From Psammoneis japonica (Eukaryota): a stretch of 64,000 nucleotides of DNA. Position numbers and translations under genes: made by a program. The stretch lies in the NCBI GenBank assembly GCA_008632985.1, contig QPGO01000072.1, positions 248,001 through 312,000 of the forward strand, given 5' to 3'. Every line of letters starts with the position of its first letter. Position 1 is the first letter of the stretch. A model generated the notes under the pieces. The model saw nothing but the letters and a program-made list of their open reading frames with translations, ran no database searches and had not been told where the DNA came from. Shown piece by piece: positions 7,260-63,187 of the stretch.

Positions 7260-10200
7260 AGTGGTGGTCTTGGCTCTGAGTTGTTTTGTTTCGTGATCCG
7301 CCTCCCGACCGCCATGCCTAACGTGGGGACATCAATCCCCAGGCAGACGCTGGACTGCCACTGACCTGCCCAGGTCCCAACAGAATTCTTCGTGAGTGCT
7401 GCCGCCTGGAGGACCCTGACTTCAGACTGTCTCTCTGCCCCTCTGCAAAGATCCAGGATGGTCAAGTGGGTGTGATGTCCATGAGTGCACTCTGCCAGAC
7501 AATGACACAGTGTTTGATTGAGTGCATTCTCACCATCGCTGGGGCCTCCTCCTCTGTCAGCGGGTGCACCCAACAATGATCCTCTTGTCAAAGGGAGGAG
7601 AATGGCTGTTTGCCAGTGAGCCAGCAAGCCACACCATGATGAAAGCTCCCAGTGCATTGAGTTCCTGGGAAGTGACTCTGCCAATGTCTCTGACCCACAA
7701 AGCAGTGCTGGCTGCACTGTGCAGCCATGCAAAACATGTCCCTGCAGCACACAGATCTGTGCCCCTTTTTTCTCTTGTCAAAATGCCAGAGACCACACCC
7801 CAGCACTTTTGTGCTTTGGCTGGGTTCTGGCATGCTGTTGGCCACATGTCATCTCTGTGGATGACACTGGCTGCCCAAGATGATGCGCTGGAAGGTGTGG
7901 GCCTGTTTGAGGGGAGTGCTGCCATGCGCACTGAGAAAACCAGCAATTTCTCAGAGACTCAGAGTGCTGCCTTGAGCACCCTGCACTGCTGCAGCCAGCT
8001 GGTCTTTTGCCTGTTTTGGGGTGTGAACAATTGAGAAAGCAGCCTGAGGCACACACATCTCTCACATGACTCACACCAAGGAAATGGTGGTGAGTGCAAG
8101 CATCCTTCTTCAACAAGGTGGTGTGCAGACTGGCAAGCTGTTGAAGCGCAGTTCCAAAAGTTCTTGACAAGTCAATTGCTCTGATGTGATGTGGACAGCC
8201 CCCTCAATCAACAGGACATGAAAGCCTGGAGGATGTGTGCAAAAAATTTACCCAGCACTCAGCAAGTTGTCTCCCAGCTTGCAAACCTCTCCTGGCCAGA
8301 TGCTCTGCCACCACTCTGTGGAGCTGAGTGGGCCATGTGTTGGGTCCAGGGAGATGGGCTTGTTGCACCACAATGTGTGCACATGCAACAAGCCTTTTCC
8401 CACACCCTCTGTTGGAATGTTGGGGTGAGAAAGCCTGTTCGCGTGTGACAGACTCATGACATTGCAACAAAAGACACCACACTGATGATTGTGGATGATG
8501 TGGTGCATTTGCACTCATGACTTGGGTTGAGTTGTGGGTTTTGTGCTCACTTTTTGGCTTTTGCACTCAGTTGGCATGGCAACAGTGGCTGACAGTCAGT
8601 TTTGAAAATGTGTTTGGAAGCCATGTGGCAAGTTTGGGGTTGGTGATGCCAAACATGCGCCAGCAAACAAGCCATGAAACTCTGATGCAGAAGGCAAAAA
8701 GTCTTGGCATGACACTCAAAGGAGTGGTGTCAGTCAGAGACAGGCTGGGAAGCCATCAGGAATCCAAACGCATCACAGGCTGGAAAGTCATCAGAAATGG
8801 TGCAAAGGCACGCCTTGTGTCAGTGTGTCATGTGGCAAAAAAGCCAGCTGGATGAGGGCAAAGAAACAATCTCTGGAGGGTCTTGCTGTGAGGTGTGAGG
8901 AAGCTGTCAAGGTTCTGCTGTGAAAGAGAGTGCAGCAAGGCTGTGTTAAACCAGGATGATGTGGGCAAGGGTGTGCAACTGAGCGCGGAAGCACAAAGGA
9001 TTTGAACAAGTGGGTGTGTGATGCGCCATTGCCAAGTTGGGATGACAGTCAGGAAGTTGCACAGAAACCACAAGAAAGATCAGCAAGCATGTCGGAAGAA
9101 TGTTTGGCCCAGAGATGCAGGCACTGGTGTGTTTGAGCCAGGAGAGCATGTGCCAAAAGAGCCACAGAACCTGTTGGAAGACACCACATCAGAGAAGGAC
9201 GACAAGGCAGCCTGGGGCAAGCAATGCGGTCACTGTGTGAAATGGAGAGTGCAGTTTACAAGATGCAGAAGGCAAAGGCTTTCAACACAGTTTTGGGACA
9301 GTGCACAAAGGCCATCCATCACAAGGTTGAAGGAGTGATGAAGTTTGTGACAGTCACAAAGGAGTGAGACATGGCAGCACTCTTGGAAATTTTCAAGTTG
9401 ATCTTCTTGTTCAATGCAAAACACTTGCACATCCAGGCAGTCAAGGCTTGGAAGCAGTTGGCACTTGTTCATCAAGATGAAGGAGATGTGCAACTTCAAG
9501 ATTGTTGCAATCAATTCATGAGCATTGTTGAGATCACAGCAAAAACATCCTGTGCAGCCAGATCTTCCTGGAAGAGATTTCTAAGAAAGAAGATGGGTTC
9601 AGCAAGGGTGCTGATGACATCCAGAACAAAAACCAAAATGAGCAGTCAATGGCATGGCTGATGGAAGGCACCAAGGAGAATGTTGACACATTTTGAAAGA
9701 CTTGCATGGGCAGCTCAAACTGGGGGTTGGCAATTGGCCCATTTTGGCTGAGAAGGCACTGCAGGTGTTGGGCACATGTGGGTCCAACAAGAACAAGCCT
9801 GGGGGTGCAAGTTTTGTGCAAAACAAGAAGAAACTGATTGAGTGCCAGAAATGTCACAAGGCTGGGCATGTGAAAAAGGATTGTCCTCCATTGCTCAACG
9901 ACGACACCAACGACTGTTGTCAGCAGAGCCAACCACGATGATGCAGGCTGCAGGAAACAGTGGAGAGCAGCCAAGTTGGTGTTGGATGGCATGGCTTCCA
10001 AGTGCAGTCCTCCTGTGCTTGATGTGTGCAAGGCACCAGTCAGTTGATGGCTTGTGCTGCGAAGAAGTGTGTTGGAAAGTTGGGATGAGAGAGGCAGCTT
10101 TCACTGGACAAACAGACAAAACATTCTTGCAGTGAAAGATGCAGCCACTGATGATTGTGGATGATGTGGCACATTCATGTTTGCAGCTCAAGTTGAGCTG

Positions 10201-10520
10201 CAGGTCTTGTGCTCACTTTTTGGCTTTTGCACCCGGTTGATGCAGCAACAGCAATTGACAGCACTGGGAGAGGGGCGTGTGTGTGTGTTTGCACAAGCCT
10301 TGCTGTGACGAGGGAGTTGGGGGTTCTTGGTGGTGAGACTGAATGCATGCCAGTCGGCAAGCCGTGAAACTCCAACAACCCTCCCCCTCTGGCGTCAGCA
10401 TGCTGGAGAGGTCACCCGATCACTGTTGCACCCGAAGACGTGCAAGTGTTATGAATCGTGTGAAAGGACAGTGGTCGCGGAATCAGTTGTTTGTTTGTTT
10501 GTCTTTTTCTGACACCCGAG
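7260..10520. other. TpA- and CpG-depleted domain of nested degenerate repeats
   Basis: Only ~6 TA in >3 kb by eye, very few CG, strong TG/CA excess, sharp edges. Confidence 0.85.
8410..10250 (+). mobile_element. Degenerate, internally deleted Ty1/Copia-type LTR element
   Basis: Diverged ~175-180 bp direct repeats TGTTGG...CAACA at 8410-8584 and 10070-10250. Gag-like zinc knuckle CQKCHKAGHVKKDC (~9844-9885). Pre-integrase-like segment at ~8670-8730. No clean TSD. Confidence 0.55.
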
Positions 10521-10754
10521 TTTGACACGCATGGATCGACGCGTCATGTTGGGTGGGAGTGACACCCGTAGAATCCTACATGATTTCAGTACCGAAAGAG
10601 CGATCAAGCAAAAGTTCCGACTTGCCTCCGACCCGCAATTGTTTTTTGATCGGGCGTGTCACTGCACATCTGCCTTGTTAGTTGTTGCTTCTCAAACCAT
10701 TCATCGCAAGAGAGAGCAAAGTAACAATTGTTCCATAACAAAGAGAGAAAAGCA

Positions 10755-13598
10755 ATGTCGAATCCAATAATCGATAATGTGGATATCGAGCTGTTGAAGC
10801 AGGTTCTCGATGAGTAAGTTGATTTTTTTTTGTAACGATTTAATTCATATCCCAGAGCTCCCATCCATGGTTGTTGTGGATTGTTGGGACAAGCAGGCGT
10901 GACTAAGTTTTTTATATAGGCGGCGGCCTACATGTGCCGCGTAATTTTTAGGATTGAATTGATCTCAATTGAAACTAACACCAATTTTTGCTGTTCTTCT
11001 TCTTTTTTTTTTTCAGTGCCATCAAATTGCTGCTTTCTCATTTACCGGCCGCCAAGGAGATTTCCATGCAAGTGATTGAAACGGTGTTTGTCCCAAAAAC
11101 AGTTGCCAAACAACTCGCACTTGCCATGGCACTCGAGACGGCTGTGATATCCATGGATCAATTGTTGGCACTGTTGCACACACTCTTGACGGTGTTTTCG
11201 TCCAAGGAACGTTTGATTCGATCTTTGAAGAACGATCAAATGCACGCGGAAACACAAGACGAATGGATGGATTTAGCGGAACGGATTGATCATATTCAGG
11301 GCAACGATGTGTGGCGATCGCAGCCCGATTGTTTGCTGTATGAGCGAGAGCGGATATCGGCACGTATTGATGAATTTATTCATTTGATGCGACGACGAGA
11401 CTTGTTTGATTTAATGTTTACACTGCGAGGGGGGATTGGACGAAACAAATTTGGACTGTTGCATGAGGGACTCTTTTCCAAGGCCATGGCGGGCAGCAAG
11501 GTGTTGGTGGAGACCTATCACAATGTCGTTTGTGCGGCTCTGGATTATTGCTGCGATGCGCCCGTGTTGGGACATGAAGATCCCATTCCGACCGAAGCGC
11601 GATTGGCGTTTTTCAACGAAGCGAGGCATTCCTATGGACGCACAGCCTTGCTCTTGTCGGGAGGTGCGGCTCTGGGATTTTATCATGTCGGGGTCGTCAA
11701 GACACTCATGGAGAATCAATTGTTACCCCGCGTTATTGGTGGATCGTCTGCGGGTAGTATCCTGTGTGCCATGATTGGAACCAGGACGGATGCTGAGTGT
11801 CACGATGATTTGTTCGAAGTGCAAGGCACGAGTGCGCCAGGACATTCGGGAGAGCTTCGCCTCAACTTTTTCAGGCCGCTCTTTGAAGACGAACAAGAAA
11901 AAAGTCGGAACGACTTGTCCGAGGTCTATCACAACACCGCGGGCGCCTTTCATGATTTCAAGAGAACCTTTCAAGTCTTTGTTCCGATTGGATTGCGCAA
12001 TGCTACCTCTGTCATTTATGACATTTTGACGGGCAAGCGCAGGTCCAACGAGGTCTTTATGCACGACACCAATCACTTTCGTCAATGCGTCCGTGCCAAT
12101 GTCGGGAACTTTACCTTTCAAGAAGCCTTTGATCGGACGGGGCGGATCCTGAACATTACCGTGACTCCCAAGAACGCGAGCGACCCACCGCGATTGCTCA
12201 ATTACTTGACGGCTCCACACGTGCTGGTATGGAGTGCCGCCGTGGCTTCCTCCTCCTTGCCGGGAGTCTTTGAGGCCAACAAGCTCATGGTCAAGGACGC
12301 GGATGGGACGGAGCGCTACGAGAGTGCGGCGGCGCAAGACTTTTCCGACGGAAGCATGGAAGCCGATTTACCCATGCAGCAGTTATCAGAGATGTTCAAC
12401 ATCAACCATTTCATCATTGTAAGTGCTTTGCAAATTTTGGATTCTCGCCAAAGAAAATGCTCATATCGTGTTGCTGTCTTTCCGTCTATTGTTGCAGTCT
12501 CAAGCCAACCCACACGCCGTGTTGTTTGCCGGATACAATGTCAATCGGAGTGTCTGGAGCCATCCCATTTTGGGATTTGCGCACGGTATTTTGGTCTTTC
12601 TCAAGGATCAAGTCCGCTCCTGGTTAACTCATGCGGTGGAACTTGTGGGTGGGCGAAGGATTGCGCCTCTCTTTCATACCTCTCGTGGTATGGGCAGTAC
12701 CTTCTTCACCCAAGAGTACGAAGGACGCAATTGCGACATTTCCCTCACTCCTTGGCTTCATCATCGCAGTCTCATGAGTGCGCTCTTGCATTGCATCTAC
12801 AATCCAAGTGAAGCTGAATTCAGAGACTGGATCATGGCGGCCCAGCGTGAAACGTGGACTCATATTCCGGCCATTAAGAGCCACTGTGCCGAAGAAATGA
12901 CATTGGATCGTTGTGTTCAGAGATTGAGGAAACGCCTCGTGACGGAATCGTGGGAGAAGCGAAGGGTCGATTCCACCTCGGAGAAAATGGGAGACCGTGT
13001 GCCATCCTTTTTCCAGAGTCCCAGCTTGGTCAATCTGGGCGGCTTGGGAATTACCGATCATGTCCAACTGGAAGTGGATGGAAACGACGCTGCTGCGCCG
13101 CTTCGTCGTGACGCTGAGAATTCTCCCCGCGCGACTTCTGCTGGTGCGCCGCCTGTGGAGATTAACCAGGGATGGGGCGGCATGGGATTGCGCGGTAACT
13201 ACTCGTTGAACAGTTTGGAGCGCAACGAATCTCAAAATTCGGGTTTGTATTTGGAAGATGACGATGACGTGCAGCAGCAACAGGTTCCTGGAGAGCTCAC
13301 CACGACGTCCGTGCAGAGTCGATCAAGTTCCTTTGGAAGATTATCTTCAGACGGTGACAACAACAGTTACATCAAGACTACGAGCATGGCTAGCTTCTAC
13401 TACCGAAACAGCTACAGCTATGACCAACTTTCATCACTCAAGTCCAAGAGTCACAATGAAATCGTTAAACCGACGGCTCCGGAGGATGAGTATACTGCTC
13501 CGACTCCCCGTACCACTGCTTCACTGAAAAAGACGTCCAAGAGCACCACCGATTTGGACATGCATCGGGATGAAGGGTGCTTGGAACCACTCAAATAG
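10755..13598 (+). CDS. Patatin-domain triacylglycerol lipase (SDP1/TGL4-like), multi-exon
   Basis: GRTALLLSGGAALG, GSSAG nucleophile elbow, TFQEAFDRTGRILNI, LLNYLTAPHV, DGS, MFNINHFI..SQANPH. Intron ~12419-12497. Start inferred. Confidence 0.9.
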
Positions 13599-19601: not shown

Positions 19602-20899
19602 ACAAAGACGTCCTTCTTCTTATACAAATGATGCCCGTCAAACGTTCACAAGATGCAAAGCACCACTCACATTCACGGTGAATGAACTTCGTCGCGGCGT
19701 GTGGCGGTGCTGTGTCGAGTGCCTCGACACGGGATTTTTTCTGTTTTAGGCGTTAACGCTCCCACGCGCGCTCAACCGCGGGCCGCGCGGCAGTTTCGTG
19801 CTAGATTTTAGATTTTGAATTTCAAGATTTTGGATTTCTAAACTATGATGCATGCCGTAGTTTCCAGAGAGATCAAGATGATTCTCCCGACGGCGAAAGA
19901 GTAGACACCATACCATACACCTTTGAACCTGAGCACCATCTGCCGTCAGATTTTTCACATCAAACTGAACACTTGAGAGTTTTGACATCTCGTGCAGTGC
20001 AGTGGCACACATGAGGACACAAATGTAGAATGATGCTGCAAAGATGGTGAATGAAAAAGCACAGAAAAATGCACAAAACAAAATGACGGGAGAGTTAAAA
20101 TGGTGTGACACACAATTGTGGCTTTTCACGACAATCGACGGCTGAGCCCAGATCCGACGTTCCACACACGCAGCAGTGGCTGGAGAACACATGTTTTGGG
20201 ATTCGCTCACATGACAAGGTTGCAGCTGACTGGCTGATGTAACAAGGCACTGCAGGACTTCATTTCTGTTGGGGGCAGTTGCAAGCCGCAGCTGATGCTC
20301 CAGTGTCGAGATGTGCCACCGCACTGTGCTCCCCAGCAATCTCTGCATTGCTTGGAAGCGTTTTGAAAATGAGAAGGCGATCTCCTGCACCAAAAGTCTT
20401 TTCTGGAACGAGTGCCATTGCAAGCGCATTGTGGGAGGACATGATGAATCACCAACAATGGCAAAGGCGATTCTTGGGGAAATGAGTTGCGCAGCACCAG
20501 TGAGCGCCGCTGACTTCGTGTGCAACCATGTCTGCTGGCAGGTCTGCAAACGAAGCGAGGAAAACAACTCGAATGAATGCAGTTGGCAGTGACAAGACGA
20601 TCAAATTCGAGTTGTTCTGCCAGTGAATTTGTGCGCATGGCAGCGGTCAAACAGCCTTGACAGATGATGCTGTGCTCCATCTGCACGTTGTGCCAGCATG
20701 ACATGGCAGGTGCATGTGTCATTTCAATCGTTTGTTGCCATCTGCTCCACCTCTGGCAGACATCATTTCTTCTGATTTCCTTTTCTTTTTGACAAGCAAT
20801 GGACAACAAAACATGCATCACACGTGCCAAATGTGGGCAAACACGCCAAATGCAGGGCAGTCGTGCGCACCTTTGCGACCCTGTCACCATTTGAAATGT

Positions 20900-31391: not shown

Positions 31392-31423
31392 TTTTGATCA
31401 AACAGTGGCGTATCATTATAATA

Positions 31424-36810: not shown

Positions 36811-36833
36811 TGCGATTCATTGGAGGAGGCGCG

Positions 36834-48754: not shown

Positions 48755-49263
48755 ATACTCATGATTGAAAAAATGATTGAAATAGAGATGGTCGTGACTC
48801 GTGGCACACACACAGTATGCATTGTCTCTAGAGAGATGTTGTACTCAGTACATACCGTAGAGTGATGGAGCATCACTGAACATCCATCCAGCACTGCCAA
48901 CTCAAACTTGAATAGCAAAAATCACATTCACGTCAGCTTTGTTGGCTTTCACCGATTCCAGAGAGCGACGGACTTGTTTTATCAATCCATATTCTAACGC
49001 AGTAACCATATTGATTCTGTAGACGGAGCATATCCAACTGGGCAGAAGTCTTTCCTGCATCTCAAGTTGAAACGAATTTGCTGCAGGAATCTAAACCCCC
49101 GCGGATTCGTCTTTCTCATGTACTAGATCTTAGGATCCCTCCGCAGATCCCTCATCCATACTGAAACTCAACTCAAAGAAACTACATGTCAAGCGGCTAC
49201 AACTCGGTGACTCCTTCCCGTCCCAATGGAACAACACGATAATCTATGGTGTCCGACAACAAA

Positions 49264-50412
49264 TCAGGCTGTCCCGTCGGTTCCAGCAGAGACAATTGAG
49301 CAATCCTCCCCGTCACTTTTCTTACTATTTTGAAGAATATCCATTGCGACTTGAAGGGGCGTCACTCGGACTTCGCACCGCTTGGCATTGAGAAGATCCA
49401 CGAACCGATCGTACAGACGTTCGTATTCTGGTCTGAGTACATTGTCTGGATCGTCTACGGCAGAGCCAACGTGTTGTGTTATTGCCATGCCGTCTTTTGC
49501 CATTGATATCATTCTTGCACCACCATCGTGCAGCTCCATTCGACGCCCATCCGACAATTCAAATGCAATCTTCCAAATATCTTGCTCCTTGTGATCCCAA
49601 CCGAACTCGGCTACAATATCAACCGCATCCATCGAGTCGCCGCAAGCGATAGCAGTGGCCTTATCATCGATGCCACTACGAGCGTTCTGTGCCCTTTTCG
49701 GTACAGAGAGGACAGAAGTACCAGAAAGAGGACCGTTCCAATTTCCTGGAATCACAAGGCTGGACTTGGTGCTGTCCAGCTCACACTCTTGCATCGGGAC
49801 GCATGAACCCAAGATTTCTTCCAACATTGATATTGGATTGAAGAGGATATCCAAGACACCAAATATGCTGTCTTTGATCCACAATTGTCCCGGATGCCAT
49901 TTGTTTACAGATTCTTTCCACTCGACATGGATAGTATTTAGCTGCAGCACGCTGCTTTGGACCCAAGCTTTAGCATTCTCCATTTGCGGACACGCTGTCG
50001 AATGATATCCCGTGTACAAGGTCAAGTTCTTGGAACGAGCAATACGTTCCAGCTCTTCAAGTTCGTGGCAGTCAAACCCAGGTGGCTTTTCCATAAACAC
50101 GGATAGTCCATAGTCATTCAATGCCTCCCTCGCGTATGCTTGTGCGAATTGTGGTGGGCACGAAACAATCACAGCATGAATTTTTGTTCCACGTCGTTGC
50201 TGCATCTGAGAAACAGCTTCACCGAGCCTTGCGTAAATCGGAGCTGGTGCGTGACTAGTGTCCTTTTTGCAAGCTAAAGGCGGATCAACAACGGCACAAA
50301 GATCAAAACATGCTGAACGACGCGACATGAGAATTGGTGCGTGTTGGTTGCGAGCGATTTCTCCGTATCCGACAATCACGACATTGTTTCTCCGACAATG
50401 AGCCATGTGCAT
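49264..50412 (-). CDS. Gfo/Idh/MocA oxidoreductase, D-galactose/L-arabinose 1-dehydrogenase-like; intronless
   Basis: IVGYGEIARNQH, FMEKPPG, WKESVNKWHPGQLWI, FGVLDILFNPIS, EYERLYDRF. Confidence 0.82.
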   Translation of the reverse strand: MHMAHCRRNNVVIVGYGEIARNQHAPILMSRRSACFDLCAVVDPPLACKKDTSHAPAPIYARLGEAVSQMQQRRGTKIHAVIVSCPPQFAQAYAREALNDYGLSVFMEKPPGFDCHELEELERIARSKNLTLYTGYHSTACPQMENAKAWVQSSVLQLNTIHVEWKESVNKWHPGQLWIKDSIFGVLDILFNPISMLEEILGSCVPMQECELDSTKSSLVIPGNWNGPLSGTSVLSVPKRAQNARSGIDDKATAIACGDSMDAVDIVAEFGWDHKEQDIWKIAFELSDGRRMELHDGGARMISMAKDGMAITQHVGSAVDDPDNVLRPEYERLYDRFVDLLNAKRCEVRVTPLQVAMDILQNSKKSDGEDCSIVSAGTDGTA

Positions 50413-50814
50413 CAAATTTTACTTTTCATGAATCATACCCTGATCAGGCAGGCAGTGATAAAAACAGACATGTAAGCAACCGACGCACCGCCATTGCCAT
50501 CTCAGCGAAAAAAAAAACTGAGCGAAAAGAAAAAACCGTAAACCGTTGCGCGCGATCGATCGCGATGAGATGAGGCGCATTTCAGCTCCAGTCTGACCGC
50601 GTCAACCGCTATGGCTACTACGGTAGCTACATAGTCCGCAAAGACCGCAAGGACCAAGTCCTTTTCCTCTCCAAACCAGCCGAAACAGCTACAACTTGCA
50701 CACGTTGAATGTAATCCTTAAAAAGCTTTTTAATAACATGTAGTTCTTTCAGTAGCTACAATCGGGACCGATTGCTTCGAAGCTTAGCTTATCCTGTGCA
50801 AGTCACGACAACTC

Positions 50815-52337
50815 CTACTCTTTCGAATTGTAGTGTTCCCTCACCCAGTCGCAAACAAAGTCCATGGATTGCTGTCCTTCTGGAATAAATGTGGACAAGA
50901 AGCAAAAGACATGACACATGTACTTCCACAAACCTACAGTGACAGGGACACCCGCAGCACGAGCTTTGTCGACAAGAAGGATTGCTTGATCATAAATCGC
51001 TTCGTGCTCGGATACCACAACGCAGAGGGGTGGCAAGTCCTCAAAGCTACGATAGACAGGTGACGTGCGACGGCGATTTTCCATGGATCCCAGTTTAATC
51101 TCAAAGTATGGGATTCCCACCTCAATGACAGACTGCAAAATACGAGGGAGGCGACGTTAGCAAGCAGTCGCTAACTTCTTCAAGAGCCTAAAGTGTCATT
51201 TCTTACCTGATTGACAATCAAATCGTGTGCAGGATACTCTTTGAAACTTCCCTCTGGGTTAGTATAATCAACAAAGGGGCCAATGAGAACTGCCCCGGAC
51301 GGCATGAGGTTGGGTTTCGCCTTTTGACATTGAATGAGCAGACTTTGAATTGACGAGCACTCGAAATCTTCCTTCCGAATGACAATTTCCGCAATGGCCT
51401 GCAAACACCTCGTCACTAGACCACCGCCCGACGAGATTCCCAGAAAGGTAACGTCCTCGGGATTTACGTTTTTGATCATGACAAGATGCATGTAGCTCAA
51501 CAACACGTCCCATAGAATCTCGTTGTAGTCCAGCTCGGGCATGAGGCCAAAGTCTGGCAAAAAGACATCGACATTACACGCCTGTGCTACAGTCTCTGCG
51601 ATAGTAGAGTTCCCCTTGGCATCGCCAGCTAAATATGCCCCACCGTACAGCCAAAACATGACTTTCCTTGACCCGCCGCTACCCTCTTTGTGAACAACAT
51701 TGTAACCAGATACTGTGGTGTTCAAGTTCTTGTCATATTCGACCTTGTGCTCCTCCAAGAATTCCGCCATATCAAATGCCTCTGCACACAGGATATCCGT
51801 GCCAGCATCAAGATTCTTCCTTGGATGACAAACATACATTTGCGAAAGCATAAACCTCATTCGCTCAATCGATACAGGAAACAATCTGCCCCACCAAGTT
51901 ACCGTCGTCAAGGCGTGATATTCTTCAGAAGCATCGGGATGAATGCCGGTACTTCGCCCAAACAGAAACTTGTGAAGGGGCAACCACAGCTTCCAAGCCC
52001 AAAATGTGAGCCTTTGTCGAAAGGCAAGAGGAACGGCCTTGTCCCAAAACAAGAAAAAGTATTTTTCCCACCACATGAGAAGGAATTGATTGATCCATCG
52101 GATGATGGACCGAATGACTTTGTTGTCGGGATTCATCTTTGTTCCCAAATTGAGATTGAGGCCTTCGTTAATTTCCTTAGCTGATTTTTCGGTTGGCCTG
52201 GCAAAGGCCTCGGTCGAATCGCAACGAAGGTATGGGATGAGCCTCTTGTCGGGTTGGAGGTAGACTCTCTTGTCAGCGGAATCGCCACCATCGCTGCTAC
52301 TCGCACCTGAAGAGCTCTTCGAAGAACATGGCGTCAT
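50815..52337 (-). CDS. Alpha/beta hydrolase (hormone-sensitive lipase-like), 2 exons
   Basis: WLYGGAY oxyanion motif, GISSGGG nucleophile, SP..LPPL..SEHE, MCHVF. Intron ~51136-51205. Confidence 0.85.
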
Positions 52338-52789
52338 GGTTGTATAATTCAGAATTTCGAATGGGTGGTCACGTCGCTCATGGTTGACTGGAGACTGGGA
52401 GAGCGGAAGAGCGAGAGATGATGTCGGCAACTGGTCACGTAGAAATCTACGAAGTTACAATACTGTGTTTTGGCGGGAAACAACGACAACATGTCACTGA
52501 GTCAGCCGCGAGGTCGTGGGAGCTCTATTACTTGCCTCATCACAGCATCAGATTTTCAATTTACCGCACAGAGGGGAATACATAGTCTGGTTCTATGGAG
52601 GGCTAGAGTAGAGGCTAATGTTACAGTCTGTAATAGCGAGCCACACAATTGTGAAACGACTACTCAATGCCACCGATCTTAATGAGATCTGAGTTCTCAC
52701 GTAAATCATCAAAACTCTGATTTTGGGAGGTTCAGGCGTGTTACTCGCAGCAAAACAACAAGACGCCAGCGTTTGCTGGTATCGGTTCC

Positions 52790-53908
52790 TTAACTGACAA
52801 AGGCATGCTTCAACAACTCCCTTGCTGATGGCCTCTTATAAGGATCCTCCATGAGCATTTGCGAAGCCATGTCAAGCGCCAACCACAAGCGCTCATTTGC
52901 TTTTGTTCTGGGCGGAACATCCTTGCATTTTCCTCGTTCGCACAGCAGCATGCTGAGCATTTGGCCAGTGGTAAAAATATCAAACGATGATACGGTAGCA
53001 TGCATCAAGCGCCATCCTGTTTTGGAATCCTCGGGAGTAGGCGAATGTAGGTGTGGACTTCTCGTTGTCGCATTTGGGACGAAAATTCGAGATTGATCCC
53101 AGTCAAAGAGGTGCGCAATGCCAGTCCTATTATCATACCGCACGTTCCTCCGACGAATGTCACCATTAATGACATTTCGCGAATGTGCAAAATCAAGAGC
53201 TTGCAACACCGATCGCATAAACGGTGAAATCTCCGAGAGACCTTCGGGTTGCACCATGTAAGGAATAAACGAAAGAATCTGTACACTAATCGCCTTTTGT
53301 TTGAACAGCCAATGACGTTGCTCTTTGGATACACCACTTCTATTCAAACCAACGTCAAGGATCTCATCATCCCACGTCCTAAAGGGATTGTCTGATATTT
53401 AGAAGAAAAATGAGACCGACTGTCAATGCTAATGACTGTGAACTGGGTGATCAAACACATTGCACTCACTCATAACTTCGCAGCTCCACAACAATTTAGG
53501 GATACTAGGTGTACTAGGTTGCTCATTTAAAATTCGAAACGCCTTCATCTCGTTTGCCGTGTAATAGAGAAAGTCCTGGGAGCCAATCTTCATCACATAC
53601 GACTCGTCCCCTAGTTTCGGTATCTTGACTTCAAAGCCCAAATTTACATATCCATTCCCCAGAACAGATACTAGCTCAATGTCATAAACTAGGTCAAGAT
53701 GCAATTGATCGTTGGAGTTTCCGTTTGTTGTTGTTGCGACATCATGCCTGTTTTCATACATCTGCTCACTCGGAGGACACCGGAATGCTGGAACTAGAGC
53801 AAAATGCCAGAGTGCAATCAGCCAGAACGCAATCAGCACAAAGACAAGGTGCGACCATTTGAAAACTCGGTGCTGCTGTTTCTTGGACAATCGAGTTCGT
53901 CTCTTCAT
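52790..53908 (-). CDS. Membrane-anchored protein kinase-like protein, 2 exons
   Basis: N-terminal TM, LGNGYV, VMKI, LDFAHSRNVINGDI..RNV, LFDWD, DIFTTG, DPYKRPSARELLKH. Confidence 0.7.
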
Positions 53909-56900
53909 CGCCAACGTGTGGTTGAAATCAACACGGCTTGTCCTCGTGGTCGCTGGTCGCTGCGAGACCAACAACAATGTTTTTTCAACAAAACAATGAC
54001 AAATTTGTCTTTGCCAAGACTGTACGGTACAGTACAGTATTTTAAATACAGAGCACCGTTCCTCGGACTTAGTTTTCAATGCTGGATGTTTTTATGTACA
54101 TGCAACGGAAATTAGAATTTTCAACTAATAGATCAACCGTTATTTCTACATGTGTGTCAGTTTTCATGATTTCCGTTGTCGTATTTTGGTTTTTCTTTTT
54201 ACCTCCATCTTGTTGCGCTCTGGCTTTTGATCATGTCAACAAAACAGTGGATGGTCTTTGTGGCATTTTTCAACACACTGCTTGCGCTTTGATGCCATCC
54301 AGCAACAACAACCCATTTTGTTGTGTTGTGCAGCTTGAGAAATCTGTCCTTGCACTCTCACCCAGCACTCGCGTGTGTGTGGATGCAGCCATTCTCCAAC
54401 ATGCTCATTTCATGGTCTGCTCTAAATGACGAAATGCATCCCAACAGCCTGGCTTCGGTGCTCTCTTTCCAGGTGAGTGTCTGTGCTTGTGTCTTGTGCA
54501 CTGCATCTGAGTCCCGCAGTGACACATCATCTTCTCAGCTCTTGCTTTCTCCTGCTTGTGTGGCCATTGTTGCACTCAAGCCCCCCCTTTCACTCTCTTG
54601 CTTTTCTGCCATTGCTGCTCCACTCCCATCATGAAAACTGAAGATGTGAGAATGAAGAAGACAGGTGCGTCTTCACAAATGCCCCCCACACTTTGCAGTG
54701 AGAAATGCGTTTCGTGTGGCAATTCGATCTTGGTGTTTTGTTGTTGATGTGCGCGCGCACATCGCTGTGTGCACAAATGCGATTGATGCCGGCACAGTGC
54801 AAAGAAAGCAAGAGGCAACTGCTGCCAGATCTGGAGCCAGAGAGCAGCAAGAAGCAAGAGGCATCTTGCTGACATTTGAGATTTGTGAACAAGCTGGCTG
54901 CGAGAGCTGTTCAAGCTCTTTGGCTTGCGACCAGTTTGCAAACAAGTTTGCAACCACTTGAGACCCTTGACATTCAACAAACAATTTTTGTGAACAGATT
55001 GCAAACAGAGTCCAGCAGTTTGCAAGCTCTTGCTGGCAAGCTGCAAGGAAGGGCCAGTTTCCAAAAGTGTGCAACAAACCCGGGCATGTGTTTTTGGAAA
55101 TTGAGAGAATGGCGCTGCCTTTGACCTTGCGCAACTCATGCAAGAACAGCAACAAGTCAATTCTCTCAACTGAAGCATTCAGTTCAGTCTGCAGCATGAA
55201 AGTTGCTTCCACCTGTTGCACTGTGATGGGCCATTTTTTCATTTGAGTTGCACCAACACAGCTGGTGATTTTTGCCAATGTTGTTGAAAGTTCAGGTGGC
55301 CAACAATGCTGTTTGGAGGTTGGCACAAAACATTTCTGCGCACATTCTGCAGCAGTGGTCTGCTCGCATGAAAGTCTCTCTGCAATGTGAGTGCTGACAA
55401 AGAGCCAGAATTGTTTCCAAAGAAAAATCCTGTGAACATCATGTGTCCCATGAAGACTTGAACACTGATGAAAAAATCTTTTAAATGTTCATGCTCCACA
55501 AACGAACATGAAAGCCAGAGTGCATGAGTGTTTTTGATGAACAGACAAAAGTGCACAAAGCTCACAAAAATTGTGTTCAAAAGGAGGTGTCATTGGAAAT
55601 GTTATTTTGTGTGTCACCTGGGGCTGGAAGAACACATCTGAAACTTGTGCAATGTTTTGTTTTGGACAAGGCATTGAAAAATGTGTTGGAACACCATGGT
55701 GGCCTCACAACCTCCAGAAAACAAAAAGGGAAGCACAAGGAACAGGTGACACAACATTGCACTCTGATTGGACAAGATGTGGTTGCATTGGGGCAAGCAG
55801 AATTGTGCACAGTGATGCCATTCCTGCTTTCGTCTGTGTGGCAAGGGAGTGGGGGGGGGGGGGGGGGGGCAAGCTTTTGAGACAAAATCGAAGCTGACCT
55901 CAATTTTGATTTTGATCATGCATTTTTTTGCTGGCAACACTGCTGGTTTGCAATCAATTTTAATTGTCAATCAAAACATTGGGCACATCTTGAACTTGAA
56001 AATGTTTGCAGACACACCCACACTCATGCTCATGACTCAGTGGTGTCCAACAATTTTTGACTTCTGCTTTCTTTTGATGAGCCATTAACTCGACTGCTTT
56101 AATTTTGTCAGAAACACAGCAGATGACCATCGTCATTTGCTTGACATTTTCCATTCAGTTTGCAAGAATGTCAATTCACACCTTCAGCAATCCAGGCGGT
56201 GCTGCTTGCATTGACACGTGCTTTTCGACACACACCCTCTCTGTGACACACACTGAAAATCTGGCTCTGTGATGTGACTGGTTTGAGGCAATGAAGGCTC
56301 ATTGAGGCTGCACTTGCAACAACTCCAAACACCCTTGATGGCCATTGTTTGCCTCCAAAAAGCAGTCCTGGGCTTCTTTGTTGCAGGACCAAAGAACCAA
56401 CAAAGGGAGGGGCTCTTTTTTGAGTTTTGTCGAGTTTGTGCTCATGAAGCTGTGATGCAATGTGTGCGCATTGTGAGAAATTGAAAATGATGGGAAAAAA
56501 CAACATTGTGAGGGAGAAGTGCAAGATTTGAACTGTGCAAAACTTGGCACCTTTTCTGCATGTGTGACAAACATGTGCATTTTTGCAACAGGAAGAGATG
56601 CCATGTGCCCTCTCTGTGACATGTGCTGAAATTCCACATGCGCCCCCAGTGTGTGTCAATGTGAGCAGTCTGTGTGCCAAGCACAAGGTGAGGAGGATGC
56701 CTTGGGGGTGGCCATGCTCTTGGAGGAGTCACTGGGCAGTGGTGACATGCAGCAGCAGGTGGATGGACAGATGTGTGGAGACAACAATGAGAGGCCACAC
56801 CCCAACTCTCTTCTCATTGTTCTTGGCAGACAAGCAGTGGCAATGGAGCTGGCTGTGGTGACCCAACATGGGTCAACAACACTCAAAAATTCCTTTCTGT

Positions 56901-57449
56901 TGACTGGCAGCCATGTTTTGTGCAGTTGCCCACACATTGGACATGGCGCCAATTGTCTCTGTGGTTTGGCTTTGATTGGCTGATCTGGCCACCACATTTT
57001 TGTCTCTCAACCACACACTGTGCTGTGGATCCAGAGAGTCTCCACAAGCCAGTGATTGTGCATTGTGCATGATGCCTGCATTGTCTCATTGACTCTGACA
57101 CACATCCTCATTGGAGCCCAAGCATTGCAGCCAGGTTGTTCTGTTGGTTTTTGGACTGGGGTGATTGTCCTGCCACCTCAGAAGCATCTTTGATCACATG
57201 GAACCTGGATTCATTGCACAAGTCCACCAATTCTGGAGGCTGCAGCTTTGGTCTTGTCTCATTGTTTCTGATCTCTTGCATCAGAACACAAGCCCAGCCA
57301 CCATCTGTGTGGCCTGCTGGCATTCCTCCTCTTGCTCTGTGCCTGTCATCAAAATCGGCCCCAGCACTGTGTCTTCATTTTGCCCATGATTGCAGTTGCC
57401 ACATTTTGCACTCACATTGAGCACATGTTTGTGATTGCATCTCCTCTTT

Positions 57450-58750
57450 TGACCATTGCAATGGTCTTGCTTCTGTTGTTTTTGCCACATCCAATGATTT
57501 GCAAAAAAAGGTCTTTTTCAGTGTTCAGAAGACACAACTCCTTTTTGCATTTTGAACAAAATGTTGTGCACATTTTTTGACATTGGTGTTTTGGGAGCAT
57601 TTTTCCAATCTTTCCACTTGTCATCTGGGAGCTTTCACAAGTGTTCAATCTCAGATGGAATTGGGGGTGTGTCTGCATGGCCTGCATTTGCCTGTAAAAA
57701 AATTGTGATCACAGCTCTGCGAGTTTTCAAACTCTTGGGACGGGACCACTTTTCCCTTTTTTTCTTTCTGTTTGTCAAAATTTTGGCCTGCTCCACCTGA
57801 CATTCAGTCTTGCAGACCTGCTCTCAGCACACAATGGCACTCTGGTCATGCACAAGTTCACAGCAAAGCTCTCATCCAAAAGACTTGTTCTCTCTCACAA
57901 CACCCCAGTTTTGCCTTTTTGCGCTCATCTTTCTTGTCTGCCTTCCAGTTCCATCCTGCCACAGCCACTGATGTCCTTGCCACAATTGAGCATGACAAAA
58001 CTTCCCCCGCTGAGTGCTTCTTGCAGTTGGGCTCCAAGGCTGAGCTTTCACTCAACCAAACAAAGCTTGTTCTCCATCACAACACCAGTTCTGACATTGC
58101 TGATTTCATGTGTGGTCAATTTGACCAGCTCCTCTTGTTTCATGAAAGTCACATCATTGCAGTTGTGAAACCCAGCTCCCTTTTGTGAATGGCAGCAATG
58201 AAGTCAAGCACTTGTGCAGCTTCTCTGACACTGCCGGTGCAGTTGCTCCCATGTTGGGAACTTGCCAATGGTTTGAGGGACACTTTGTGTCTTTGGTGTC
58301 CCAAGATGATGCAGTGATGTCTGGCTTGCCTCATGTTGAGACTCCTCCAGATGATGTTGAGAGACCTCCACTTGCTGACAGTGCCAATCATCCAGCATCT
58401 CTTCAACACCTCAATTTGGGAATCCTGCCAGGGCTGAAGAACAAGCAGTCATTGTTGCTCTCCCCATGGCCTTTCCTCTCCCTCCAGGTTGCTCCTGTCC
58501 CTTGGAATTCACTCCTGACAGTTGTCTTCAGTGCCAGACATGTTGTGGAAGGCTGTTGGTTGCATCCAACAGCATGTGTGGGTTTTGTTCTCTCAATCAA
58601 GAAAAACCTTCTTTTGAGCAAGCCACCAACAGCCTGCGAGTTGTCAATGATTTCATCAGTCTCAACATTTGCAACTTTTTGATGATGATTTTCAGGTGGT
58701 GGCACCCTTTTTGGACAATCATGCAAGTGTCCAAACCACCATCAGGACAT
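57450..58750 (-). mobile_element. Possible piggyBac-like transposase relic
   Basis: Colinear loose motifs VETDE..GGL..FFLIERTKP, ..DCLFFS, WMIGTV, GAGQIDH, and C-terminal CQKMCTTFCSKCKKELCL. Confidence 0.35.
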
Positions 58751-59099
58751 CCTCTGCTTTGACCTGGCAGCATTTTGGGGGGGCATGGTTCAAGGCCCAA
58801 CCACCAACAAGACATTGCAAATGGAGCTCAGGCAGAAAGAGTTGTTGCCCCTCAAGGACCCACTGCACTGTCAATGTCAGAGCCCGCTGACATCCATTCT
58901 TGGCACTCTTTGTTCTTTTGCCACACAAGGTGGTGGGTTCTGATGCTGTCACTTTGGGTGCACTCAAGCCAGTTTTTGTCAATGCTCTCCAACAATCAAG
59001 CAAGACTGGGTGGGCTTGGCTGCTGCATCTGTGAGGTTGCTGTCATGGCACTCAGCAGCAGCAGGAGGTCAATGAATGTCTTTGATCAAGTTTTTGCCT

Positions 59100-62000
59100 T
59101 TCATGCTGCTTGTGCAAATGAGGCTTTTGCAGATGGCATTGTCTGTTTCTTTTGTCCCTTGCTTTGCTGACCAGCCTCCCAGTGCTTGGGTCATGACACA
59201 CGTGCAGCCAACATCAACATTGTGAACTTTCTTGGTCCTTGTGTGGACAGCCACACTGAGAATTGTTCCCAGAAGGTCAAAGAAGGCCAACAAATTTCTG
59301 GGCACTCTGTCATGATGGACTCCAACAATGCATTTGCTGAATCAATCAAGAGTTGTGCTCTTTACAACACAGGTCAAGCTCATGATTTCTCAGACATTGT
59401 TTTGGCTCTTGGCAACTTCAGGCTCATCTTCAATGCCCTTGTTGATGACTTTGATGATGAGGCTCTCTGGCAACAGCTTCTCCATTGCTGCCATGATGCT
59501 TTTGGCAAGAGTGGCAAGCAGCAGATTGCAAGCAATGGCAACACTTGCAAAATTGCTGCCAATGTGCTCAACGGCATTCAAAATGTCATTTGCACCTTCT
59601 CCCAACTTGGCAGCATCCCAGATTGCCATGAGACTGTCTGCAACTCACAGCACATCAGCACCCAGGCTCTGGACATCTCCAAGCACTTGACAAACCAGTC
59701 AATTCAGGATTTTGAAACCAGTGTCAGTTGTGCCCCCCCCCTGGAACCTTTGGAAGCAAGTGCTTGCTCTCTCAGCTTGCTTTGGAGTCAAACTCTGCTT
59801 TGAGTGCTGGCAAGCATTCAGTCAATTCTCTTCTGGCAGCAGTGTCTCCATCCAAGAAAGCAAAGTCTCCCTTGTTGGCATCTGACCTTGAATTGAGCAA
59901 GAAGATGGGGCTCCTCCTGGTCATTTCTGGAAACCCTTGTCAGCCTTCTGTTGTCCCAGTTGTGGCAAAGAAATGTGTCAATTTGAGAACTGAAGAGCAT
60001 GTGCACCCTCATTTGGTGATGTGTGAGTTCTGTTGCAGCCGTCCCAAGTGCAGCAAGCCCCACATTGCAAATTTGTGCAACCTTCCTCAGGCCAAACACA
60101 GCTGGCTGCTGATCAAATTTGTCAATGATTTTGACAACCTGTCCTTTGCCAAGGGAAAAGGCCCCAGCAGTGCAGCTGCATGGTTTCATCTTGTGACAAA
60201 CCAGCGAATCTGTTTTTCCAAATGCCATCTGTCACCTCCATTTTTGTTTCAGTTTTTGTCAACCTTGTGCTTTGCCAGCTTGCATTGTTGACTTGGTTGC
60301 TGCAATTTTGGATGACAAAATGGATGTGATCTGAGCTGCAGAAGCTGAAGCACTCACAGAGATCAAGAAATTCTTTCCAGCGCCATCCCTCCCTGCAAAC
60401 TTGTTGGGTGCTGGTGCTCCTGCACCCACCTCAATGATTGATGACTCTTTTAAGAAATTTGAATGAGAAAAGTTCATCAGAGTGAACTTTTCTGATCAAG
60501 GAGGGTCCCACTTGGACCAACCTTTTGGCAATGACAATGTCAGTCAAAAGCTCACCTCTGTGGCTGCTTTTTCTCATGTTTTGCTGCCCCTTTGGAAGTC
60601 TGGCTTTTTGCAGGATGACACTGGCAAACAGAGTTTTCTCTTGTTTCCACTGATTTTGTCAGCAACTGGGATGACCTGTGTTGTGTTGCACCAGGTGCCT
60701 GGTGTGCCTCCATGTTCTTCTTCAGGAGCATGGCAACATTGACTTTAATGCCCTTCAAGGATGCCCTGGAGATTGGGAGAGTGAAGAAGACCTCAACAAG
60801 GATTGAACCCAAAAAACTGCATCTGCTCTTCTCCATTTTGATGAGGACATGGCATTGTCAGTGCAGCAGGTCAGAGGCCCACATGTTGCTGTGCACAGAA
60901 AGAAGGTTGACAAGATCATCTCATCATTTTTGGATGGCAAAGTGGTCCCTTCTGTCATTTCAACTGTCCATCAAGACAGATCCAGGAACAAAATTTAAGG
61001 TGCTTGCAAGGAACTCCAAGCATGGCTTTGTCCCAACCTTTGATTGGCAAATCACTCCTTTTGCATTGAATTGTCACTTTTTGCCTCAGAATCTGGTTGA
61101 CATCAACAAATTGTTCAAGAGCCCTTGTCCAGTCATCTTGGATTTGGCCACTTTGATCATCTGTGGCCGTCAAAGGTTTTTTGTCACTGGAGGTTGAGTC
61201 TCCTCAACTGATGCCACTGCTTGGATGGACTTTGTGTGTTGGGTTTACAATGCCCACATTTCACACCCAACACAGGACATCCACCCAATTGACAATGATG
61301 TGATGGGAGCACACTGCATGATGAAATGCAATCTGAGCTTGGCTGGCATGCATGCACCAGTCCTGTGTGGATTTGGTGTCACACAGACTGGGCGCAATTT
61401 TGCAGACATGCCCAACCCATGCTGCAACAGAGACCAGGACATTAAAAAAATGGGCGAAAGTGCACTGAGTGCATGAAAAATCAAAAAATGGTGCATGTCA
61501 AACATCAGAAGATGCACGACATCAAGGAGTCATGAGAAAGTCAGCTGACAACATTGTCAAAGACAATGAGATCAAAACAACTCCTGCACCGCCAGTGTAA
61601 AGAAGCAGTCATTGATGTCAAACAATTGTGTGAGACAGGCTTGTGCATGAAATTGGCCTGGAACCCAAAGGTGAGCCACATGTCACATCATGCTTTTTCC
61701 ATGTTGGTGCTCGAGTTCACCTTGATGCCACACTTGATGTGTCCAGACAACTTCAAGACACATGAAGCATGTTCATTGCAAGACATGTGTGCTGCCACTG
61801 ATGACAATTGGGTTGCTTCTGCATGTTTTGAATTTCCCTTCATTCCAAGAAAATGTGGGTGCACAAAGTGCTGGGTGCTGGGGGATGACTGGAGAGAGCC
61901 ACCAACATTCCTCCCACCAAGGCCAATCTCAGGAAATGAAGAAGTCCCAGCGCCACTTGCCAAGCACACACACAAAAAGGAATCCTGAAATGAAGAGAAA

Positions 62001-63000
62001 GGTGTCGACTGCAAACCTTGGCAAAACAGCAGCGGCCCCTCTCCACCACGCACCATCACTCTGTGTGCCGCAGTGCCACAAAACAGTGTGCATGGGTTGT
62101 CAAATGACATTTGAATCTTCTCAAAAAGGTGGCAGCCACACAGGTGATTGGCAGCCTTGTGCCCATGGTGAACAAAACGGGGGTCTGACATGCCACACAG
62201 ACACAACAATGCAGGCCACCAGGATGAGATGGGTGATGCAACAAACTGAGGGCCATTGCAAGGCATGCCAACCTGCAGTGCAGTGCAGTGCAGTGCAACA
62301 AGTGCGCACAATTGAACGGTTGATTTTTGAATCAGAGCCAGTGAATTTTGTGTGCGTGCACACAGCCATCCATTTTTCAAATGTTCTGGTGTCCATTGGG
62401 GTGGTGGTGGCTGGCCCCAATGTCATCAGCAGCTTGCACAATGTGCTTCCACATCCCACCAGATGTTGTGGAGATCATGCAACCTTTTTTGCCAGTGCTT
62501 GAATTTCCACCAGCTCCAACAGCTTCAGCGGTCACTTTGTTTGCTCAAGCACTCCTGGGCTCTTTCAACCTGGGGGTGCTGAATGATGGTCGTGGGTGTG
62601 GTCATCCACCAGCATGTGCAAGCATGGTCACATCAACGACAACGTGCACACCAATGTTCAGGAGTTTTTGGAGCATGCTGTTTGTGCAAGTGGCTGCACC
62701 TGTGCTTCATGTGATGCAAGGTTTTCTGCACAAGGAGTTTCCCAGTGCTTTGAGCTTTGAAAAGCTCAATCTTCTTCTTTCTGCCTTTTTTCAGCAATTT
62801 TTTGGATGAAAGTGCAACACAAGGGCCGTTGCAGTTGGCTCAATGGACCACAAGTTGCATGAGCTGCTCTTGATCATCCTTCACAAGTGGCTCCAATTGC
62901 TGAAGCACCCGTTGTTGGACATGTCTTCTTCACTTGGTTTGTTGGCGTTCCATGCATGCTGCTGCCCCCACGCATGTTGTGATGGCTCTTTCTTCTCTGG
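59100..63000 (+). mobile_element. Degenerate DIRS/Ngaro-like retroelement (ORF1 + RT)
   Basis: ORF1-like 59186-60180 with a Cys/His cluster. RT-like KHGFVPTFD..TPFALNCHFLPQNLVD, HISHPTQDIHPIDNDVMGA, and HI(N/D)DNVH at 62629-62649. No recombinase seen. Confidence 0.45.
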
Positions 63001-63187
63001 AAAATTTTCTGGGCAGATTTGATTGCCCATCACCACATTGCACAGTGGATGCTTCTTGAGCAATGAGGGTGGAAGAAACAAACACATTGGACCAACTTTC
63101 TCAGAAGCTGTGTCATGGTGTGTTTTCCAGTGTTTTTTTTGGGGGGAAAAGCCCAATTTGTCTGCTGTTGTGAGACCCAGGCCTTAA

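Follow-up and report, generated by a model that had tools for sequence, protein, structure and literature searches.

Targeted mutation of invading DNA is textbook knowledge for fungi (RIP, for repeat-induced point mutation) and for the vertebrate APOBECs; both are directed at cytosine. The RIP of ascomycete fungi changes CpA to TpA (C to T), raises TA and AT, makes stop codons, is triggered by duplication and hits both copies. APOBEC3 changes C to U on minus-strand complementary DNA (cDNA) before integration; the resulting G to A changes are strand-asymmetric and are the same in both long terminal repeats (LTRs) of an element. The locus analysed here comes from a diatom, Psammoneis japonica (assembly GCA_008632985.1, contig QPGO01000072.1, positions 248,001 to 312,000 of the forward strand; these 64,000 nucleotides are called the window, and all coordinates refer to it). 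It includes four islands of several kilobases in which the dinucleotide TA is nearly absent and TG and CA are in excess. Comparison of sequences makes it very probable that these islands result from a regional, strand-symmetric hypermutation of TpA to TpG or CpA, which acted on real DNA, in place, after integration.

The closest described system is that of the chlorarachniophyte Bigelowiella natans (Mettrop et al., bioRxiv 10.64898/2026.01.13.699255), the single prior report of an adenine- (or thymine-) directed counterpart acting on chromosomal DNA. According to the accessible part of this preprint, 231 of the 302 nuclear point mutations of mutation-accumulation lines were found in two integrated viral regions; all but one of them (230/231) were A>G or T>C, all on TpA. 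The rate of TpA mutation was some 1000 times that of the background, and only part of the lines were affected. In the genome, 124 clusters are poor in TpA and rich in CpA+TpG, and domains of reverse transcriptase and DDE endonuclease are overrepresented among its TpA-poor coding sequences. An ADAT2 homologue is proposed as the agent, in the role of a DNA adenine deaminase; in vivo, DNA adenine deamination on chromosomal DNA is known for few cases (cited in 10.64898/2026.01.13.699255). A first-pass annotation of the window had proposed a candidate defence system for which it knew of no described equivalent. This novelty has to be given up, the preprint (10.64898/2026.01.13.699255) including both TpA-only A>G/T>C mutation and the same deaminase idea in its accessible part.

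For diatoms, cytosine methylation of LTR retrotransposons has been reported in Phaeodactylum, with preliminary bisulfite data that place it in CpG context at one element (PMC2806351). In its accessible part, that paper mentions cytosine methylation only and no TpA mutation. The literature search found no report of TpA-specific hypermutation in diatoms, and the words diatom, stramenopile, CpG and heterochromatin are absent from the accessible text of the B. natans preprint (10.64898/2026.01.13.699255).

All testable defining features of the B. natans phenomenon are found in the window: changes almost only of the A>G/T>C type, TpA context, both strands and regional clusters. As far as the preprint is accessible, the likeness extends to the confinement to foreign or repeat regions and to the TpA-poor, CpA+TpG-rich composition of the clusters. 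The diatom thus probably represents a second, unrelated lineage with the TpA hypermutation recently described in B. natans. The hosts differ: B. natans is a member of Rhizaria, whereas the diatom is a member of Stramenopila. The targets differ also: integrated viral DNA in the accessible account of B. natans, LTR retrotransposons, unclassified repeats and a remnant of a cellular-type gene here. The TpA observed/expected ratio (o/e) is given there as 0.45 for the giant-virus region, whereas the values of the diatom islands (0.02-0.07) correspond to near-total erasure. The preprint documents de novo mutation in the laboratory; the evidence from the diatom is comparative only. Not reported in the accessible part of the preprint are a concurrent loss of CpG, an extension of the changes into flanks, different fates of the LTRs of one element, a sparing of T-A-A and the existence of a locus in two versions. 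That the same rule is found in diatom repeat islands, and there much closer to completion, indicates that the phenomenon extends beyond a single species and links it to retrotransposons and to position, not homology.

Loss of TA and its direction

Islands were delimited by a 1-kb sliding scan and by a list of the gaps between successive TA dinucleotides. Expected TA numbers are based on the 28,604 bases of the window located outside islands and elements, in which TA o/e is 0.59. D1 (7320-10450) contains 4 TA for 111 expected; its CG o/e is 0.17 and its TG/CA o/e is 1.85-1.89. D2 (20097-28702) contains 23 TA for 329 expected, with an overall CG o/e of 0.26. D3 (about 37375-45200, with a partly depleted shoulder extending back to about 33500) contains 26 TA for 208 expected (o/e 0.07); its CG o/e is 0.85 and its GC content is 55%. 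D4 (54201-63185) contains 14 TA for 365 expected, with a CG o/e of 0.14. The first-pass description of four multi-kb domains nearly without TA and rich in TG/CA therefore stands: 67 TA are left in all, and the deficit per island has a Poisson p of 6e-42 to 4e-134. The three longest TA-free runs are of 1668, 1595 and 1587 bases. Of the non-overlapping 1-kb windows, 25/64 have a TA o/e of 0.10 or less. The thresholds of the B. natans preprint (TA <=0.43, CA+TG >=1.52) are reached by 21/64 windows, which form runs of 3, 8 and 9; those of D3 pass the TA threshold and mostly not the CA+TG threshold.

The o/e of TG and of CA is 1.81-1.90 in D1, D2 and D4 and 1.35-1.44 in D3. Both dinucleotides are raised about equally (TG:CA ratio across islands 0.89-1.15). 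The sum of TA, CG, TG and CA per base is 0.237-0.251 in the islands and 0.240 in the background. As this sum of pyrimidine-purine steps is constant, the purine/pyrimidine skeleton is intact, and only transitions inside these steps have occurred. No TG/CA microsatellite was detected in the islands by Tandem Repeats Finder, which gave two short arrays only (254 and 38 bases, both in D2), so that simple repeats do not explain the TG/CA excess.

CpG is lost as well in D1, D2 and D4 and is kept in D3. In the three former islands, the CpG deficit with an unchanged pyrimidine-purine total corresponds to a matched excess of TpG/CpA; part of their TG/CA excess is therefore ordinary CG decay. The view taken at first pass that CpG decay does not remove TA is correct; the CpG loss of the three islands had not been remarked there. 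The composition of D3 (CpG kept, GC raised) is the one expected if the change of TA to TG/CA had acted there alone. A gradient of CpG is observed along D2: CG o/e drops from about 0.6 (20-21.5 kb) to 0.03-0.08 (25-28 kb), TA being gone throughout. This suggests that D2 is composite, with parts of different age or methylation history.

The direction of the change can be read from proteins. D3 corresponds to a Copia-type LTR retrotransposon (38120-45476, + strand; LTRs 38120-38303 and 45293-45476; domains RVT_2 and SH3_retrovirus), whose relatives are 50-58% identical; one of these is named as Fragilaria crotonensis. The pol open reading frame (ORF) of this element (40925-43693) encodes 0.1% tyrosine, versus 3.0% in 40 relatives. 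Twelve columns have a conserved tyrosine (Y in at least 70% of the relatives); the element keeps one, the other 11 having become C (4), H (3), F (3) or L (1). Altogether, the Copia protein differs from its relatives at 73 conserved columns. One step from TG/CA to TA undoes 17 of these differences and one step from TG/CA to CG undoes 13, whereas each of four control changes, the RIP direction included, undoes 0-2. Controls for AA, GA and CA explain 0-2 of the 73 versus 17 for TA, and A>G after A explains none. Among 80 metagenomic loci of the same Copia lineage, TA o/e has a median of 0.59 and a minimum of 0.35. The remnant of a DUF7640-repeat gene within D2 encodes 0% tyrosine, versus 3.4% in 31 relatives. 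Since the Copia relatives, the metagenomic loci and the DUF7640 relatives have normal tyrosine or TA, the TA-free state is the derived one.

Change in place, position and footprint

A Gypsy-type LTR retrotransposon (30803-37419, + strand; LTRs 30803-31391 and 36831-37419; domains RVT_1, RT_RNaseH, Integrase_H2C2 and rve) is located to the left of the Copia element. On insertion, an element has two identical LTRs. Those of the Gypsy element (589 nt) are now 96.3% identical and those of the Copia element (184 nt) 92%; in purine/pyrimidine letters, these values become 100% and 98.9%. The Gypsy LTRs differ at 22/589 positions, of which 19 have TA in the 5' LTR and CA (11) or TG (8) in the 3' LTR; the reverse was not found. 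Transitions account for 21/22 differences. When read from the TA-bearing copy, the AT-to-GC differences are all at TA (19/19), and none of the 22 is a change of AA to AG. The 5' LTR has 31 TA sites and the 3' LTR 12, all of them common to both; 0/31 sites are changed in the 5' LTR and 19/31 in the 3' LTR.

Several earlier claims about the nature of the event are supported by these counts. The direction from TA to TG or CA is given by the Gypsy LTRs (19/22) and by the Copia tyrosine columns (11/12 changed). The strand symmetry of the event agrees with the 11 CA and 8 TG of the Gypsy LTRs and with the TG:CA ratio of the islands, and the TpA specificity, as opposed to a general AT->GC drift, with the 19/19 count.

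Against these 19/31 changed TA sites, all other positions of the two LTRs together have 3 changes; the change at TA is roughly 100-fold above background. Only 2 of about 32 CpG sites of these LTRs are changed. This two-speed picture is consistent with D3 (TA gone, CpG kept) as well as with D1, D2 and D4 (both gone).

The fate of the sites follows their location. The mutated Gypsy LTR (3') is the one that adjoins the Copia island. From left to right, TA o/e is 0.83 in the first part of the Gypsy element (30803-33500), 0.26 in its second part (33501-37419), 0.11 in the intervening spacer of 700 bp (37420-38119, 5 TA) and 0.07 in the Copia element. The depletion of the spacer implies that the island is not bounded by the ends of elements. 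On the other side, the limit of D3 lies about 280 bp inside the Copia element, whose 3' LTR keeps 8 TA and whose 5' LTR keeps 3. The overshoot on one side of the Copia element, the undershoot on the other and the unequal fates of identical LTRs point to a positional (chromatin-like) domain and speak against a homology trigger. The arrangement along the sequence thus argues for targeting by position, not by sequence homology.

Internal repeats give similar information for other islands. D1 includes a direct repeat (8410-8596 and 10070-10262; 73.5% identity in bases, 91.7% in purine/pyrimidine letters), and D2 includes an internal repeat (21100-21208 and 21437-21545; 100% identity in purine/pyrimidine letters). 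Adjacent double differences of the TG<->CA type were found in the D1 repeat (12), in the D2 repeat (4) and in the Copia LTRs (1). Such a double marks one ancestral site at which the two copies were changed on opposite strands, so that in D1 and D2, too, the mutation took place in situ.

The stretch is contained in one public sample, with two runs, here called X1 (contigs) and X2. Of 1026 sampled 31-letter words from 53501-63500, 59% are present in X1. Among 867 X1 contigs on 43501-63500, 247 are at least 99% alike; one of 6.4 kb (word depth 57.7) spans host genes. The TA-free text is thus present in reads and not only in the assembly.

The right flank of the Copia element (45737-46646) has normal TA in the window and exists in a TA-depleted version in X1 contigs. 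Between the two versions, 21 of the 25 listed differences have TA in the window versus CA/TG in X1. In the fully covered part (45737-46139), 13/23 TA sites differ versus 3/357 other positions; two of the latter three (45871 and 45872) form one CA<->TG double. A contig of X2 from the same sample, spliced and RNA-like, has the letter of the window at the sole informative site (46244). Two versions of the flank, in which TA erasure has advanced unequally, therefore coexist in the material from a single sample, perhaps as alleles or as subclones. Nothing else in the data indicates as clearly that the process is recent or ongoing. It looks unfinished at 33.5-37.4 kb and at 45.2-46.7 kb, where new events could be caught.

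Differences between X1 and the window number 476 in all, including 352 transitions and 111 transversions; 40 are listed individually. In 43501-45500 and 54200-63500, 9 of the 15 listed differences have TG/CA in the window and CG in the other copy of X1; paralogous copies thus differ mainly in the extent of CpG decay. The flank also includes an ORF of 259 codons without Pfam match (45922-46701, - strand), which is intact in the window and lies in the part depleted in X1. Should this ORF be a real gene, the spreading process is causing damage to one version of the locus.

The sequence context was analysed on 54 TA sites of known fate (31 from the Gypsy LTR and 23 from the flank), i.e. 108 target adenines with 33 changes. 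The proportion changed is 2/26 for T-A-A, 5/26 for T-A-G, 10/25 for T-A-C and 16/31 for T-A-T. The base 3' of the target A matters (A versus the rest, Fisher p 0.003); the base 5' of the T is without effect (p 0.63). TA sites that survive in the islands are enriched in TTAA (16/67 versus 44/1159 in the background; odds ratio 8, p 2e-8). As TTAA reads T-A-A on both strands, this enrichment agrees with the sparing of T-A-A. TG and CA outcomes are randomly interspersed (runs tests, z 0.36 and 0.61): at each site the strand is a matter of chance, whereas processive single-strand deaminases leave strand-coordinated runs. The 3'-neighbour preference (T-A-T/C changed, T-A-A spared), the random choice of strand, the spreading into flanks, the unequal fates of LTRs and the coexisting locus versions are new details of the phenomenon.

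The change of TA to TG/CA cannot create an in-frame stop codon, since TGA comes only from TAA. This absence of new stops accounts for the long open frames found on both strands of the islands and for the frames of 687 and 922 codons that are still open in the Copia element despite its loss of tyrosine. Coding capacity is damaged without stops: all tyrosine codons are affected, together with many codons for Ile, Leu, Asn, Lys and Thr. Neighbouring DNA is damaged too, namely the cellular-type gene remnant of D2 and, in one version of the locus, the flank ORF. Long open frames without tyrosine will mislead gene callers and repeat finders.

Proposed agent and competing explanations

In the proposed mechanism, an A preceded by T would become G on either strand. 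The agent would be an adenine-deaminating enzyme with the DNA context 5'-T-A-(T/C)-3', recruited to silenced chromatin. Its most plausible source would be the fold of tRNA adenosine deaminases (TadA/ADAT). The natural substrate of these enzymes, A34, is always preceded by an invariant U33, and this makes the fold attractive. TA erasure is nearly complete and creeps into neighbouring DNA; the CpG loss of three islands is probably a separate and slower process, the ordinary deamination of methylated cytosine. The explanation as a whole (real DNA, regional and strand-symmetric TpA hypermutation in place, with a putative DNA adenine deaminase) is considered probable. The deaminase step taken alone, i.e. 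an enzyme that would deaminate adenine of chromosomal DNA in the context 5'-T-A-(T/C)-3', is proposed tentatively. A defence role and guidance by chromatin are interpretations of the pattern.

In a broader form, which is conceivable and is advanced with reserve, diatoms would have an active, chromatin-coupled DNA-editing defence. Recruited to silenced islands, its enzyme would turn the A of 5'-T-A-(T/C) into G in double-stranded DNA of the chromosome, clear the islands of TA and advance into neighbouring genes, which would give rise to allelic or clonal differences within one culture. With hosts in Stramenopila and in Rhizaria, such a defence would be either old and spread over the whole group of Stramenopila, Alveolata and Rhizaria (SAR) or repeatedly evolved, and it would be a counterpart of fungal RIP. 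If a DNA adenine deaminase is at work, the responsible enzyme would be a natural base editor.

A to G chemistry is shared with TadA, ADAT2-3, ADAR and the TadA-derived adenine base editors, and the U that precedes the edited A in tRNA matches the T-A rule. ADAR acts on double-stranded RNA and prefers a G as the next base, whereas the target A is here preferentially followed by T or C and seldom by A. The likeness to APOBEC3 lies in the inactivation of retroelements by a deaminase with a dinucleotide context; the change observed here differs in being A to G, symmetric and subsequent to integration. Decay of CpG through 5-methylcytosine accounts for the CpG loss and part of the TG/CA excess of D1, D2 and D4; it cannot remove TA, and in D3 and the Gypsy LTR the loss of TA is far ahead of that of CpG. 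Like RIP, the process is a regional, transition-only hypermutation with a dinucleotide rule, which wrecks transposons and can leak into neighbouring DNA. Unlike RIP, it removes TA, raises GC, cannot make stops and treats identical LTRs differently. The view taken at first pass that RIP is not involved is upheld by the composition of the islands (TA o/e 0.02-0.07, TG/CA o/e 1.35-1.90) and by the Copia protein (1/73 differences in the RIP direction). A duplication trigger also fails, since the Gypsy 5' LTR has 0/31 sites changed and a high-copy foldback element beside D4 keeps its TA (o/e 0.86).

Some observations weigh against hypermutation in place by such an enzyme. Three of the 11 changed tyrosines of the Copia element are Y -> F, which is beyond what TA -> TG/CA can make. 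None of the 120 Copia relatives is poor in tyrosine (minimum 1.7%) and none of the 80 metagenomic Copia loci is TA-free (lowest 1-kb window 0.18), peptide patterns being liable to miss mutated copies in both searches; the process is thus not seen elsewhere by the route of relatives and metagenomes. D4 has sharp edges and is multi-copy; it could be a duplicate of a copy that was already TA-free. The context statistics comprise 33 events only. Finally, X1 may be the data from which the window itself was assembled, its library type not being on record, so that the independence of its support is not proven.

Among the competing explanations, a lesion on thymine and a passive origin are the least improbable. 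The primary lesion could be on thymine: a TET/JBP-like hydroxylase or another activity would mark the T of (A/G)-T-A in silent chromatin, and the marked base would mispair with G or be misrepaired (T to C). On paper, A>G after T and T>C before A are the same strand-symmetric signature, and a purine preferred ahead of the T would describe the context effect just as well. None of the observations made on the window contradicts this route directly. Hydroxymethyluracil of dinoflagellates is concentrated in TpA and TpC, which favours this route; hydroxymethyluracil paired with A is weakly mutagenic, which does not, and a lesion on thymine is considered unlikely. Alternatively, there would be no dedicated system and the changes would be a passive by-product of silent chromatin, e.g. 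of synthesis of the polymerase-eta type (WA to WG) or of a local repair defect. Their confinement to seemingly silent, repeat-rich domains and their spreading into flanks would be explained in this way. However, polymerase eta, one of the agents suggested at first pass, should also hit AA, which is untouched: the o/e of AA/TT inside islands is 1.0-1.4, and 0/22 Gypsy LTR differences and 0/73 protein differences fit. This candidate is accordingly disfavoured. A TA excess of about 100-fold, near completion, is hard to obtain from a repair defect, and a passive origin is quite improbable.

The other explanations move the change out of the chromosome or reverse it. Editing of RNA or cDNA before integration (ADAR-like or APOBEC-like) would have led to elements inserted already TA-free, in agreement with the sharp edges of D1, D2 and D4 and with the multi-copy state of D4. 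Editing of one strand gives TG only or CA only, whereas both are seen equally and interspersed. A difference between the two LTRs of one element is possible only after integration; the spacer and a non-transposon gene remnant are depleted as well, the flank differs between two versions of the locus, and internal repeats differ by TG<->CA doubles. Editing before integration was rejected for D3, the Gypsy element, D1 and D2, being contradicted by the unequal LTRs, the depleted spacer and the TG<->CA doubles; as a general explanation, it is very improbable. A modified base misread by the sequencer or the polisher, the true sequence being TA, is slightly less credible still. The platform of the assembly and of X1 is not known, which leaves some room for such an artefact, but misreading by strand would give reads with TG throughout or CA throughout and not a fixed random mixture. 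Moreover, X1 contigs (word depth about 58 on single-copy DNA) carry the same words, LTR pairs and internal repeats carry different fixed outcomes, and the de novo mutations with the same signature in B. natans came from Illumina data (accessible part of 10.64898/2026.01.13.699255). Last, the polarity could be reversed: the TA-bearing copies would have been mutated from CA/TG to TA in a RIP-like manner, and the TA-free state would be original. An LTR pair alone gives no direction, but the TA-bearing LTR and flank are at background TA (0.59-0.83) without excess, the relatives have normal tyrosine and TA, and one of the 73 protein differences fits the RIP direction versus 17 the opposite one. Reversed polarity is contradicted by these three observations and was rejected as hardly credible.

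Content of the islands and neighbouring sequences

The TA-free regions had been called transposon domains at first pass. This holds for D3 (Copia) and for the neighbouring Gypsy element; it is not supported for D1, D2 and D4, which gave no transposon Pfam domain above cut-off, D2 including instead a gene remnant with DUF7640. Transposon identity is demonstrable for one island of four (D3). No transposon Pfam domain above cut-off was found in 205 stop-free ORFs of the D1, D2 and D4 regions: 112 ORFs of at least 90 aa from D1, D2 and D4, and 93 ORFs of 50-89 aa taken from D1 and D4 only, the set not including the 70 short ORFs of D2. The sole Pfam match among the 112 longer ORFs is DUF7640. The 93 shorter ones gave sub-threshold matches only (zf-CCHC at 17.7 bits, DUF4741 and Acyl_transf_3). 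For D4, 116 ORFs were scanned without a Pfam match above the curated cut-off. The Gypsy and Copia proteins of the window found only their own loci by tblastn. With 10 of the 120 Copia relatives as queries, all 30 matches were within 38000-45500, and none was in D1, D2 or D4. By self-comparison, D1, D2 and D4 are mutually dissimilar, even in purine/pyrimidine letters.

The direct repeat of D1 could represent the two LTRs of a small element in decay. A gag-like zf-CCHC match is located between its two copies (9687-9938) and is sub-threshold (17.7 bits for a cut-off of 20.8).

The decayed DUF7640-repeat protein gene of D2 (21502-22666, - strand) has two matches to Pfam DUF7640 (E 4e-15 and 2e-8). 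It has 31 relatives at E<=0.001, which are 23-38% identical. All ten of the relatives that were scanned have 2-5 DUF7640 repeats and no transposon domain; one has an added PT repeat. Judged from these relatives, the gene remnant is probably of a cellular type and not derived from a transposon protein.

D4 is multi-copy, with an X1 word depth of 120-440 versus about 58 on the adjoining single-copy genes. Its right edge is a foldback element (63183-63682; arms 63183-63395 and 63470-63682, of 213 nt each, 96% complementary and 74 nt apart). The TA content of this element is normal (o/e 0.86), and in the bin 62844-63500, where it is located, X1 words reach a depth of about 2369, i.e. about 40 times the single-copy level. 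The foldback element is either younger than the TA erasure or beyond its reach.

X2 contigs skip 48686-48855 (170 bases), 51133-51206 (74 bases) and about 53391-53468 (78 bases); the first two stretches have GT-AG ends on the minus strand. No RNA data set is listed as containing the stretch; X2 thus behaves like RNA although it is listed as 'DNA?', and the skipped stretches are introns of the host genes at 47-54 kb. Its cover on TA-free bins is essentially nil, which was not taken as evidence of silence.

Between D1 and D2, a patatin-type lipase gene (10988-12811) encodes a protein that is 70-76% identical to proteins of Nitzschia inconspicua, Cylindrotheca closterium, Bacillariaceae sp., Seminavis robusta and Amphora coffeiformis. 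All named relatives of this host lipase are from diatoms, and most of the genera named are raphid pennate diatoms.

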